Shown: positions 25,951-39,562 of the stretch, in pieces
Layout: each line of letters opens with the position of its first letter
How positions within the stretch are numbered: position 1 is the stretch's first letter
From: a virus
Lineage: Duplodnaviria > Heunggongvirae > Uroviricota > Caudoviricetes
Direction: 5' to 3' (one strand)
Virus record (IMG/VR): IMGVR_UViG_2579778807_000004
DNA length: 44,314 bases
Made by a program: the position numbers and the translations under genes
Notes under the pieces: generated by a model
Database searches by the model: none
What the model was told of the DNA's origin: nothing
Seen by the model: the letters and a program-made list of their open reading frames with translations, nothing else

Positions 25951-26224
25951 CATGATGTTACCGTAGTATGTGAGTATCCATCGAATAGATACCAAGCAAA
26001 AAAGCTCCCGAAGGAGCCTTCATTTTCACTTTTTTAAATCCAACGACAGACGGCTGGCATTTAAGTATTGTGAAATATTATCAAATGTAATCATCATTGA
26101 TTTACAAAAGATACATTTTGCCCCGAAAGGATTCATGTCAGAAACATCAAAAGATGATGTTCTATACTGGGAACCATGACAACACGGGCATCTAAAGTGA
26201 ATATGGTTTGTAATATTGTCTACC

Positions 26225-26437
26225 TCAAAGCGCCACTACATGAACAGCGGCAGGACCTTTAGGTCCGTTCTCAATACCAAATTCAACTTCCTGATTCTCA
26301 GTTAATGTTTTGAAATCGTTGCTCTGAATTGCTGAGAAATGGACAAACACATCTTTGCTGCCATCTTTCGGCGTGATGAAACCAAAACCTTTTTCAGGGT
26401 TAAACCATTTCACTAAACCAGTCATTTTGTTAGACAT
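26225..26437 (-). CDS. Cold-shock protein, CspA family
   Basis: [35 protein letters not shown]... canonical cold-shock domain; long AT-rich 5' leader upstream. Confidence 0.92.
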
Positions 26438-26800
26438 AATTATTACCTTTTGAAGAAATTAGCCCTTGGGCAGAATGGTCCGAAAAAAAATATCAGAGAG
26501 AAAAACCAACAAGGAAATCTCAAGAGGTACAAATAATAAAATTATAACAATGACTGCTTCAGATAAATTTGTAACAAACCAGAACACCATTAACGCATGA
26601 TTAACCACCCATAGCAAGGATTACTTTTGTAAAGAAAAACACAGCAATGAAAGAATAGCTTTATTTATTAATAATAACGTGTCATTCTGATTAAGACCTT
26701 TTATCTTACCCTTAAGATTTCAGGAATTTTGGCTCATGGAAGAGTCCTTTTTATTTAAATTTTACATTCCGCGATGTAAATGTTCCGATTTAATATTACC

Positions 26801-33289: not shown

Positions 33290-33553
33290 TTATTCTTCTG
33301 CAAAAGCTGAAAAGCCTGCTTTTATTCCGATCTCTTTCAGTGCCTGTAATGAAGTGACAAACTCACCTTCGCGCAAGATAAATCCGTCTGTCACTCGACC
33401 ATCCACAAAATTAATTAACGCAGCCCCATTCTTTCGCAAACACATAATGCGGTAATGACTAACAAGATTTCCATTTTCAACGCACACAGCATAGAGGCCA
33501 TCTTCACAAAAATTTTTACGCAGTTCTTCGATGTTCATCATCATGTTCATCAT
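33290..33553 (-). CDS. Hypothetical small protein
   Basis: 87-aa ORF with Met-rich N-terminus between rem-like and hok. Confidence 0.35.
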   Translation of the reverse strand: MMNMMMNIEELRKNFCEDGLYAVCVENGNLVSHYRIMCLRKNGAALINFVDGRVTDGFILREGEFVTSLQALKEIGIKAGFSAFAEE

Positions 33554-33769
33554 CAGAATCCTTCCGGATAATTAGCTCTCCCCTTTAAGGGACCATCCCT
33601 CTTCTCCCTGCGCGCTACTTAAGTATTTTTGATTCTATTCCGGCACCGTCCAGAACTTCAAACGCGTTGAAAATAAAAACAAAAACCCGCCGAAGCGGGT
33701 TAAGTGCGGGTGCGTTGAGGATGCCTGCCACATCAGAGGTGGCGAGGGATTTCTCCCTCGCCGGGTCTC

Positions 33770-33925
33770 TTACTCCTCAGGTTCGTAAGCTGTGAAGACA
33801 GCGACCTCCGTCTGGCCGGTTCGAATTCGTACCTCGCAAAGGTCTTTCCTCGTTACCAGTGCCGTCACTATGACGGTTAAACAGATGACGATCAGGGCGA
33901 TTAACATCGCCTTTTGCTGCTTCAT
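33770..33925 (-). CDS. hokD: Hok/Gef-family membrane toxin
   Basis: MKQQKAMLIALIVICLTVIVTALVTRKDLCEVRIRTGQTEVAVFTAYEPEE matches remembered HokD/RelF; 51 aa. Confidence 0.85.
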   Translation of the reverse strand: MKQQKAMLIALIVICLTVIVTALVTRKDLCEVRIRTGQTEVAVFTAYEPEE

Positions 33926-34155
33926 AGCCTGCTTCTCCTTGCCTTTCGGCACGTAAGAGGCTAACCTACATGTGTCTAGCATGAAATTGGCCTCAGATTA
34001 ATGTTAAGCGTCTTGCAGGACGCGTAATGTTAACTGGGGCTTTTCTCTATCTGCCTTTGGTGTTCATGCCTGAGACAGATAGCCTCAAGCACCCACGGAA
34101 ACTTTACTAAAGGAGTTATAGCTTTTCCAGTAGTCTCAACATATTCACATTGCTA

Positions 34156-35712
34156 TTACCTATCAAACAACGGATGTATTACAAAATCTCTCTTCATATC
34201 AGTAATATCCAAATTAGGTTTATCAAAAGATGAATATATAATTAAAGATGCTGTTTTCCTTATGCCAACCACGCCTACGACGAACCAGACTTTAAGTAAC
34301 TCCTCAAAATTCATCAATATTTTTGTATGTTGATCATCCTCTTTAACTACAGTCAATCTATCAAGTAAATGCTGCGATATATCATCTTTTACTGCTTGTC
34401 CTATGTTTGAGACTGTAAAATCAGAAAATGAAATCAAGGAAAGCACATCCAAATATTCTTCGATAAACGGATATATGCTTTTCCATTCTGTAACCAAAGC
34501 TCTCTTTCTGGACGAATAAAATTTCTCTTCGGCAATTAACACAATATTTTCATTCATGTTAACCATACCATCGCACTCAGAAAGACATATATTTACGAAA
34601 TTAATTGCATCTCTAGGCCTAAGCATTGTTCTGTCAAGGATATAATCATCTGCTCCAATACCTTCAACTGTAAAATTAAAAATATCCTTCATTAATACAG
34701 ACTTATTTGATTGATATCTATTTTTAACCAAATGGTTAATTCTAGCATCAATAATCTCTCTTATTTCCGTTTTATTCCATGATATGGAATATATTAAAGA
34801 TTGATCTTTCTCATCCTGCCTTAAACTACTTTTATAAATTCCCATTAAAATATCTGTTCTTATTGATATCAGAACCTTAACCGACTTTATATCTAATAAT
34901 TCTCGAAAGGCCTCAAGAAGAGCATTAATAAAGTCATATCTGATGGCGCTCGTGCTTAACCAAGATTTATCTAAATCATCGATACTGATTACTATTCTAA
35001 CCTGGTTTGAGTCAGCGAACTCCTCTTTAAGTATTTTAATAAGTTCTTTTTGTTTAAAAAGAAGTTCACGACTCACATAACTTGAAGTTTCTGATTGTAT
35101 TTTGGCTGTATCAGAATTAGATATTTTACCACCCACACCAACAGCGGAATTTCCGAGTTTGAATGACAAATCACTTTCAAGCTTGTTACTTATTTCAATG
35201 AGCGCTTTATCATTGAAGAAATTTTCTTTAAATTGTTCAATATAATCATTCGCAACTTCTGGTTTATACGGTTTCTTCTTACCACCAATAAGATCTTTAA
35301 TTTCCTCAAAAAAGCTTTGATAGGAAGAACGATAAACGGCTGGTATAACTTTCATAAGTAATACATGCAGCCATAACGATTTATAAAACCCACGTAAATC
35401 TATCCCTTTCGAGATCAAATCAGATATAAACACATTGTTATTAATATGTTCAAATATCGTATTTTCTGCCTCTATTGTGTCATGCAGCTTAATATTTCCT
35501 TTGTCTAATATTTTTTTAAGCAACGCAGACTTACCGCTTCCTGTTCTTCCAACAATAATTCTTCTTGTAAAATCAGGATTCTTCTCAGTAGAGTCAAAAT
35601 TCACAATACCTTTAAAAACATTGGACTCATAAAAACAAGCATCAAGATAAGAATCAGTTTCCGCCTCTAATTTTCCAATCTCATCATTATTTCTGAATTT
35701 ATAGGCATTCAT
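34156..35712 (-). CDS. P-loop NTPase of unknown family in an AT-rich island; candidate standalone anti-phage defence / abortive-infection protein
   Basis: Walker A IVGRTGSGKSALLKKI near N-terminus; Walker B-like VRIVISIDDLDKSW ~185 aa later; Arg-containing motif RTMLRPRD; strikingly AT-rich versus flanking phage genes; occupies the relBE-equivalent hotspot. Confidence 0.7.
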   Translation of the reverse strand: MNAYKFRNNDEIGKLEAETDSYLDACFYESNVFKGIVNFDSTEKNPDFTRRIIVGRTGSGKSALLKKILDKGNIKLHDTIEAENTIFEHINNNVFISDLISKGIDLRGFYKSLWLHVLLMKVIPAVYRSSYQSFFEEIKDLIGGKKKPYKPEVANDYIEQFKENFFNDKALIEISNKLESDLSFKLGNSAVGVGGKISNSDTAKIQSETSSYVSRELLFKQKELIKILKEEFADSNQVRIVISIDDLDKSWLSTSAIRYDFINALLEAFRELLDIKSVKVLISIRTDILMGIYKSSLRQDEKDQSLIYSISWNKTEIREIIDARINHLVKNRYQSNKSVLMKDIFNFTVEGIGADDYILDRTMLRPRDAINFVNICLSECDGMVNMNENIVLIAEEKFYSSRKRALVTEWKSIYPFIEEYLDVLSLISFSDFTVSNIGQAVKDDISQHLLDRLTVVKEDDQHTKILMNFEELLKVWFVVGVVGIRKTASLIIYSSFDKPNLDITDMKRDFVIHPLFDR

Positions 35713-35961
35713 TGAACAAAAGCTCCATGCTATCTGTAGTTTGGTTTTTAATTATAAAAACATTTTATTAACAATTCCACTAAATTGAAACATAATGACA
35801 ACATGAAACAAAACGTTAGAGGTCAGTTGGCATCAATTGCTCTACCTAAGCTCTGTTACCGACTCCCCGACTACTCCCCAAAATTTTTTGTCTCTGGTAT
35901 CCGTTGCTGTTCCGGCGACATTCCTGCGCCGCAGCCTGTTTCGACGCTGTTGACCTTTCGG

Positions 35962-39506: not shown

Positions 39507-39562
39507 TTTCTGGTGACGTTTGGCGGTATCAGTTTTACTCCGTGACTGCTCTGCCGCCGTTT
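39507..39562 (+). ncRNA. dicF: DicF small regulatory RNA (FtsZ translation inhibitor)
   Basis: TTTCTGGTGACGTTTGGCGGTATCAGTTTTACTCCGTGACTGCTCTGCCGCC followed by TTTTT matches remembered DicF; between ydfA-region and dicB. Confidence 0.85.

Follow-up and report, generated by a model that had tools for sequence, protein, structure and literature searches.

The hok/sok system (parB) of plasmid R1 has its elements in the order tac, metastable hairpin, ucb, sokT, SDmok, mok, dcb, SDhok, hok, fbi and terminator, and both an inactive full-length and an active truncated state of its mRNA have been described (PMC9841398). Other relatives are hokW/mokW/sokW of the Stx2 phage 933W (AF125520), the chromosomal hokC/mokC/sokC (gef) and hokD (relF) of the Qin prophage of Escherichia coli K-12, where it is the third gene of relBEF. 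In K-12 the hok loci are reported to have lost their activity through IS elements, through point mutations or through large rearrangements (PMC2654758, citing Pedersen & Gerdes 1999). In a recent survey hok was found to be enriched in prophages and not near defence systems, and its function in prophages was left open (bioRxiv 10.1101/2025.08.07.668861).

We analysed a 44,314-nucleotide stretch of viral DNA (the window), which is a Qin-like lambdoid prophage of E. coli. Its hok region was 100% identical to that of E. coli strain YZ3E2001, and rem, ydfU and Q genes were also found. Three Rfam matches above the gathering score were consistent with a Qin-like prophage, namely an IS009 RNA (1218-1416, - strand), a cspA-type thermoregulator leader (26198-26583, - strand) and the small RNA DicF (39508-39559, + strand). 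The hok module was located at the usual place of Qin/933W-like lambdoid prophages, between rem-ydfU-Q and the replication/immunity region. Judged from sequence and by analogy with R1, from which its function would be taken over, 33676-34129 very probably forms a complete type I toxin-antitoxin module of the hok/sok family and of the hokD type, as in hokW/mokW/sokW of 933W.

The hok toxin ORF (33770..33925, - strand, 51 aa) was taken from the list of open reading frames and is preceded by the Shine-Dalgarno sequence GGAG (33938..33935, -). Its protein was identical to K-12 HokD/RelF over 51 aa, as the initial annotation had suspected. It matched Pfam HOK_GEF with 81.6 bits (E=3e-23), and the match to the NCBIfam Hok subfamily (48 bits) was under the curated cutoff of 73. 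The ORF contains at Tyr47 a TACG motif (33784..33787, -, with the A at 33786), which is the TadA A-to-I editing motif and the same as in K-12 hokC/D/E. This editing recodes Tyr to Cys in the hokC/D/E mRNAs and was reported for K-12 hokD, whose protein has a single encoded Cys in its C-terminal part (PMC5630033). HokD-type toxins may in this way obtain a second cysteine by TadA editing of TACG, perhaps needed for full toxicity (PMC5630033). The absence of relBE noticed in the initial annotation was borne out, since tblastn with the K-12 RelB and RelE proteins against the whole 44-kb window gave a best E of 1.6. The relBEF operon arrangement, with relB and relE directly upstream of hokD, was therefore not found, and a Sll1717-family ATPase gene is upstream instead. 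This is the NTPase island mentioned in the same annotation. The gene encodes a 518-aa P-loop ATPase (34156..35712, -; NCBIfam ATPase_Sll1717, 180 bits; Pfam KAP_NTPase, 28 bits) and is located inside an AT-rich island of about 31% GC at roughly 34135-35850.

Each leader element was identified by alignment with R1-type hok/sok and other hokD loci. It was found that the 169 nt upstream of hok contain a full hok leader with tac, ucb, the mok Shine-Dalgarno sequence, an in-frame mok and dcb. The Rfam model RF01794 matched 34094..33920 on the hok strand over the full model (positions 1-157) with 118.3 bits (gathering score 59) and E=1.8e-26, which places the features of the locus far beyond chance. 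The predicted full-length hok mRNA (33676..34094, -, about 420 nt) runs from the tac 5' end to the terminator U-tract. Its 5' end was set by homology to the start of R1 hok mRNA and position 1 of the Rfam model, its 3' end was taken from the terminator scan, and its fold is given below. The translational activator tac, GGGUGCUUGAGG (34083..34094, -), forms the 5' end and was recognised by its pairing with fbi and ucb in the folds; our family comparison used 62 related loci taken from species-representative genomes, and most of them have the motif. The ucb or anti-SD box AAGCCCC (34036..34042, -) was assigned from the folds and the Rfam consensus structure. The mok Shine-Dalgarno sequence GAGG (33991..33994, -) is located 8 nt 5' of the mok AUG. 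The mok ORF (33770..33982, -) has 70 codons in frame with hok, so that its product is MLDTCRLASYVPKGKEKQA followed by Hok, and such a 70-codon in-frame mok was also found in 933W mokW and other hokD loci. The dcb box GCCUC (33957..33961, -) pairs with the mok Shine-Dalgarno sequence in the fold of the truncated mRNA, a role in the processed mRNA that follows the R1 model (PMC9841398). Downstream of hok we found the fold-back inhibition box fbi, CCUCAACGCACCC (33708..33720, -), complementary to tac by RNAduplex, and the intrinsic terminator AACCCGCUUCGGCGGGUU followed by a U-tract (33684..33701, -), detected with the terminator scan. The sole substitution of the leader against the consensus is a C to U change at mRNA position 19, where pairing is kept as G-U, and hok, mok, tac, ucb, dcb, fbi and sok showed no disabling change.

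Two Rfam matches in this region call for comment. RF01794 is named 'sok antitoxin', yet what it matches is the hok leader in sense orientation, between tac and the start codon of hok, folded as in the processed mRNA. On the + strand, which is the real Sok strand, it gave only 16 bits, and we dismissed this weak match as noise. Automated annotation based on RF01794 would consequently place 'sok' on the wrong strand. The isrK model matched the hairpin of the hok 3' UTR together with fbi and the terminator (33680..33761, -) with 25.7 bits (gathering score 50, E~1e-3). IsrK is a small RNA with its own promoter that heads the orf45-anrP anti-repressor operon (PMC4825925). The idea that IsrK of Gifsy-1 is a relic of a hok 3' end was rejected, as the likeness is limited to a hairpin and a terminator and is probably due to chance.

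Next to the single elements, the predicted folding of the whole RNA was in line with R1. The minimum free energy (MFE) fold of the full-length RNA (423 nt) had -171 kcal/mol (z=-8.35) and was closed by a helix between the 5' and 3' ends, in which tac and fbi (GGGUGCUUGAGG/CCUCAACGCACCC) form 12 base pairs; ucb was paired to the mok Shine-Dalgarno region in this fold. When the 3' end was deleted up to fbi, the MFE fold switched to a tac/ucb stem and an SDmok/dcb stem, and these are the stems of the RF01794 model. The two predicted folds of the hok mRNA are those described as the two states of R1. The tac-fbi duplex was calculated at -21.5 kcal/mol with RNAduplex, at 49 nt past the hok stop codon. 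Among the related loci the pairing was searched at 40-60 nt after the stop, and complementarity was found 45-56 nt past it in 21 distinct sequence combinations, with covariation. Compensatory changes were seen at position 4 of the helix (U-A in 12, C-G in 6 and U-G in 2) and at position 12 (G-C in 14 and A-U in 6).

On the opposite strand we found the sequence features of a sok antisense gene. Its promoter, assigned by homology, consists of a -35 hexamer TTGCCT (33939-33944), a 17-nt spacer and a -10 hexamer TAACCT (33962-33967), and would drive transcription on the + strand. Every aligned family member has both hexamers at the same position, the R1 type (TTGCGC-17-TATCCT) among them, but this conservation is confounded and is not independent evidence, because the hok Shine-Dalgarno sequence and dcb overlap them on the other strand. 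The putative Sok RNA gene (33974..34044, +, about 71 nt) was defined by its fold and by gap-free alignment to sokW of 933W: the 71-nt misc_RNA annotated as sokW in 933W maps to 33974-34044 and starts where the -10 hexamer predicts. The 5' single-stranded tail of Sok is the complement of the mok start codon (33980-33982) and of the bases immediately before it, and the base of its long hairpin is complementary to the mok Shine-Dalgarno sequence. The hairpin folds at -32 kcal/mol (z=-3.6) and is followed by the tail CUUUUCUCU, so that the RNA ends in CUUUU. Every family member that was aligned keeps a variable 5' tail, a hairpin and a U-tail on its antisense strand. In each of the 23 distinct hairpin variants, which carry many compensatory changes, the antisense strand exceeded the sense strand in stability by 2-10 kcal/mol, which indicates that G-U pairs are selected in the Sok orientation. 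Taken as gene anatomy, 33939-34044(+) is a cis-encoded sok opposite the mok initiation region.

The initial annotation had expected hok leader elements in the approximately 230 nt upstream of hok, and had raised the possibility of an antisense sok RNA on the + strand. Both were recovered, the former from tac to dcb with the RF01794 match of 118 bits, the latter as sequence features with a gap-free alignment to annotated SokW. The alignment with characterised hok/sok loci that it had proposed located mok, tac, fbi and the + strand sok promoter. The interval it had named, 33926-34155, covers the leader, which ends at 34094, and also the promoter-like stretch that extends to about 34129. Its framing of hok as an orphan whose control was unclear did not hold, with a complete leader, mok and a sok gene found beside hok.

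The 5' tail of Sok (33974-33990, +) and the matching mok start region were the most variable part among near-identical hokD copies. Up to 10 places per genome matched the locus in complete E. coli genomes. The variability of the tail fits copy-specific recognition where several hok loci share one genome.

For hok itself, the putative promoter (34101..34129, -) has a -35 hexamer TGGAAA (34129..34124), a 17-nt spacer and a -10 hexamer TAAAGT (34106..34101), with 6 nt between the -10 and the mRNA 5' end. Similarity to other loci runs to about 35 nt upstream of +1, and the window is diverged there, with a promoter that looks weaker: most hokD loci have TAGAAT where the window has TAAAGT, which retains the critical T1, A2 and T6. 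A sigma-70 consensus scan of 33550-34250 gave neither the hok nor the sok promoter above threshold, and both were therefore assigned by homology. The hits of the scan in this interval were the hok terminator, a promoter-like site at the ATPase 3' end (34166..34138) and another one upstream of rem. In the terminator scan no terminator-like site was detected between the ATPase stop (34156) and the hok mRNA 5' end, so read-through from the ATPase gene into hok is possible. Judging by the diverged -10, hok may be poorly transcribed here, or may be made only via read-through from the ATPase gene. This diverged promoter, with the possible read-through, is the sole feature that might make the present copy atypical.

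When the locus was compared with the described systems, that of 933W covered 72% of the 576-nt query (about 33698-34111) at a nucleotide identity of 91.5%. These two loci share the 169-nt leader, the 70-codon in-frame mok, the long-hairpin Sok and tac. The alignment with the sokW region was gap-free and had a mean column identity of 96%, with 94 identical columns among 101. Five of the seven substitutions in this 101-nt aligned region were clustered in the 5' tail of Sok, the part that recognises the target. Further differences were found in the Hok C-terminus (FTAYEPEE in the window, FVDYESEK in 933W), in the promoter region upstream of +1 and in the flanking genes, the 933W locus being near the right end of the phage genome. 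With R1, the window shares the order of elements given above, the place of the antisense promoter (TTGCGC-17-TATCCT in R1, TTGCCT-17-TAACCT here) and the predicted two-state folding of the mRNA (PMC9841398). R1 aligned in patches, with conserved boxes amid largely dissimilar sequence, and the 72% mean column identity counts gap columns. R1 Hok is clearly divergent (52 aa against 51 aa), and the Sok hairpin of the window has an extra GC-rich extension of about 21 nt. R1 hok/sok is located on a plasmid and the present locus on a prophage, and function has been proven for R1 only. The chromosomal hokC/mokC/sokC has the same in-frame MokC architecture, Mok and Hok are 71-74% identical and tac is identical (GGGUGCUUGAGGC), but its Sok hairpin is short (31 nt), its leader has 150 nt, and it is located in the core chromosome and IS-disrupted in K-12.

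K-12 hokD is a different case. It encodes the identical Hok protein at the same prophage position, and its CDS, 3' UTR (fbi and terminator) and downstream rem/ydfU flank were 98.9% identical to the window. The homology runs from the rem flank into hok and stops at 33938, 13 nt 5' of the hok ATG and one base before the sok -35 hexamer, and beyond this point K-12 carries relE-relB. Only the 13 nt with the hok Shine-Dalgarno sequence are thus left upstream of the ATG in K-12, and relE-relB replaces tac, ucb, mok, dcb and the whole of sok, in agreement with the description of a truncated, rearranged form (PMC2654758). Since the homology ends just before the sok -35, we conclude from the sequence comparison that K-12 relBE-hokD is a derived rearrangement which removed all upstream of the hok Shine-Dalgarno sequence, and that the window has the intact form. 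The order relB-relE-hokD given in the initial annotation is correct for K-12, but it was wrong as the reference state. Of 5426 complete E. coli genomes, at least 1333 have the full locus in colinear arrangement with the window as far as the mRNA 5' end, and 1166 of the 5426 have the K-12 relE-hokD junction. Many genomes, and inducible phages as well, have kept the whole module at >95% identity, a sign of purifying selection. It was also found in 108 phage records, labelled mokW/hokW/sokW, 'phage maintenance protein' or HokD. RefSeq records of identical sequence annotate the hokD CDS only and no sok RNA.

While the side of the locus downstream of hok is constant (rem, a 92-aa ORF, ydfU/DUF968 and Q), the slot upstream of it (about 34095-34135 in the window) was a cargo site of Qin/933W-like prophages that varied between genomes. 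In the window it is occupied by the Sll1717-family ATPase, a junction shared by only 10 of the 5426 complete E. coli genomes. The occupants elsewhere were AIPR (abortive-infection) proteins in strain VTB96935v, DUF551 and hypothetical proteins in strain STEC719, the Paa adhesin in strain 99E2750, RelBE in K-12, and in strain JNEC-KY178 an IS481-family element that splits the leader. The ATPase had a weak similarity to the NCBIfam model 'DS41_1 anti-phage protein' (39 bits, cutoff 370), and PADLOC gave no match for the ATPase or for Mok/Hok. It is possible that the ATPase is an uncharacterised prophage defence gene.

Some individual loci differed from the general pattern. In JNEC-KY178 the IS481-family transposase gene (L069, 1285-2588) separates the hokD CDS from the 5' part of its leader, so that hokD is disrupted by an IS here much as hokA/C/E are inactivated by IS elements in K-12. 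In the hokD locus of STEC719 (L005, 2842-3036) the mok start is no longer in frame with hok owing to an indel. What lies upstream is an ORF of only 19 codons whose UGA overlaps the hok AUG (AUGA), so that mok would be a short coupled uORF instead of an N-terminal extension of Hok. Contigs assigned to Veillonella parvula (MAG), Xanthomonas pisi, Acinetobacter idrijaensis, Candidatus Scatousia and Haemophilus (MAG) also carried hokD loci nearly identical to the E. coli type. Contamination of these five assemblies with E. coli or phage DNA, or mis-binning, is the most likely cause.

Several other readings of the locus were considered. The locus could be anatomically complete but silent, a passenger relic with a degenerate promoter left by the ATPase-island junction or without the ability to kill. 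The hexamers TAAAGT and TGGAAA, set against TAGAAT in most hokD loci, would fit this, as would the failure of the consensus scan to flag the promoter. The intact chromosomal hokA, hokB and hokC gave no post-segregational killing when tested (Pedersen & Gerdes 1999, as cited in bioRxiv 10.1101/2025.08.07.668861), so intact anatomy is no guarantee of activity, and a HokD with one encoded Cys in its C-terminal region may need TadA editing of TACG (PMC5630033). We still consider silence rather unlikely, given that no disabling change was seen in the elements from tac to sok (the change at position 19 still pairs), that the -10 keeps its critical bases and that the conservation of the module in many genomes and inducible phages speaks for purifying selection. 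That hok is instead an orphan which lost its relBE context, unregulated or controlled in trans by a Sok from elsewhere, appears extremely unlikely and is already contradicted at the sequence level. The missing relB and relE and the records that name the hokD CDS alone would agree with it, but a full sok gene with promoter, 5' tail, hairpin and U-tail is present, aligned gap-free to annotated SokW. Moreover, RelBE is a separate type II system and not the antitoxin of Hok, and in K-12 it was the relBE junction itself that deleted sok.

The upstream gene gives rise to a further reading, a composite operon comparable to relBEF of K-12, in which the ATPase would be a phage sensor and hok the distal gene and membrane effector of abortive infection. 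Both genes are on the same strand with 61 nt from the ATPase stop to the hok mRNA 5' end and no terminator-like site between them, the ATPase resembles the anti-phage model below its cutoff (39 bits vs 370), and the slot elsewhere holds AIPR abortive-infection proteins and RelBE. However, the rarity of the junction (10 genomes) and the diversity of neighbours elsewhere, where the module adjoins unrelated cargo such as the Paa adhesin, DUF551 or an IS, disfavour such an operon. The ATPase also had no PADLOC match, hok was not enriched near defence systems in the large survey (bioRxiv 10.1101/2025.08.07.668861), and a 5'-extended read-through transcript would not have tac at its 5' end. We regard the operon as very unlikely. 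A broader form of this idea is that the hok/sok module is the fixed right-hand anchor of a hypervariable cargo slot in Qin/933W-like prophages, where recombination in the hok promoter or leader, or immediately 5' of it, exchanges foreign AT-rich genes, and that in some arrangements, including the window, the cargo would be transcriptionally coupled and Hok the shared killing effector of a composite anti-phage unit. As a whole we find this proposal improbable.

For the complete hok/sok module preferred here, the elements, complementarity, conservation and covariation were observed directly, and transcription, processing, Sok activity and killing would follow by homology to R1. A weak promoter would give a hok mRNA of about 420 nt. 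Pairing of tac at its 5' end with fbi at its 3' end would lock this mRNA in an inactive state, with ucb masking the mok ribosome-binding site. Slow trimming of the 3' end would remove fbi, after which tac would pair with ucb, and the mok ribosome-binding site and the Sok target would become exposed. Synthesis of Hok would require translation of mok, its in-frame extension. The unstable Sok of about 71 nt (33974-34044, +), made constitutively, would bind the processed mRNA at the mok start, block translation and trigger cleavage of the duplex. If sok transcription stopped, either by loss of the element or by shut-off of the host by an infecting phage, the stable mRNA pool would be translated, and the 51-aa Hok membrane peptide would then kill the cell.

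The hok/mok/sok module of the window is canonical and already described, having been annotated earlier as hokW/mokW/sokW in 933W. Across the family, prophage-borne hok/sok may serve in prophage maintenance or in phage exclusion, and on this the window brings nothing new. What the locus does indicate is that K-12 is misleading as the reference for hokD, as it carries a relBE-linked copy without tac, mok and sok. Automated annotation, in which the hokD CDS alone is named, invites the reading as an orphan toxin, and the apparent puzzle is dissolved by annotating mok, sok and the mRNA elements. The intact, self-regulated module is common in E. coli prophages, so that the apparent 'orphan' is the normal form and K-12 the exception.
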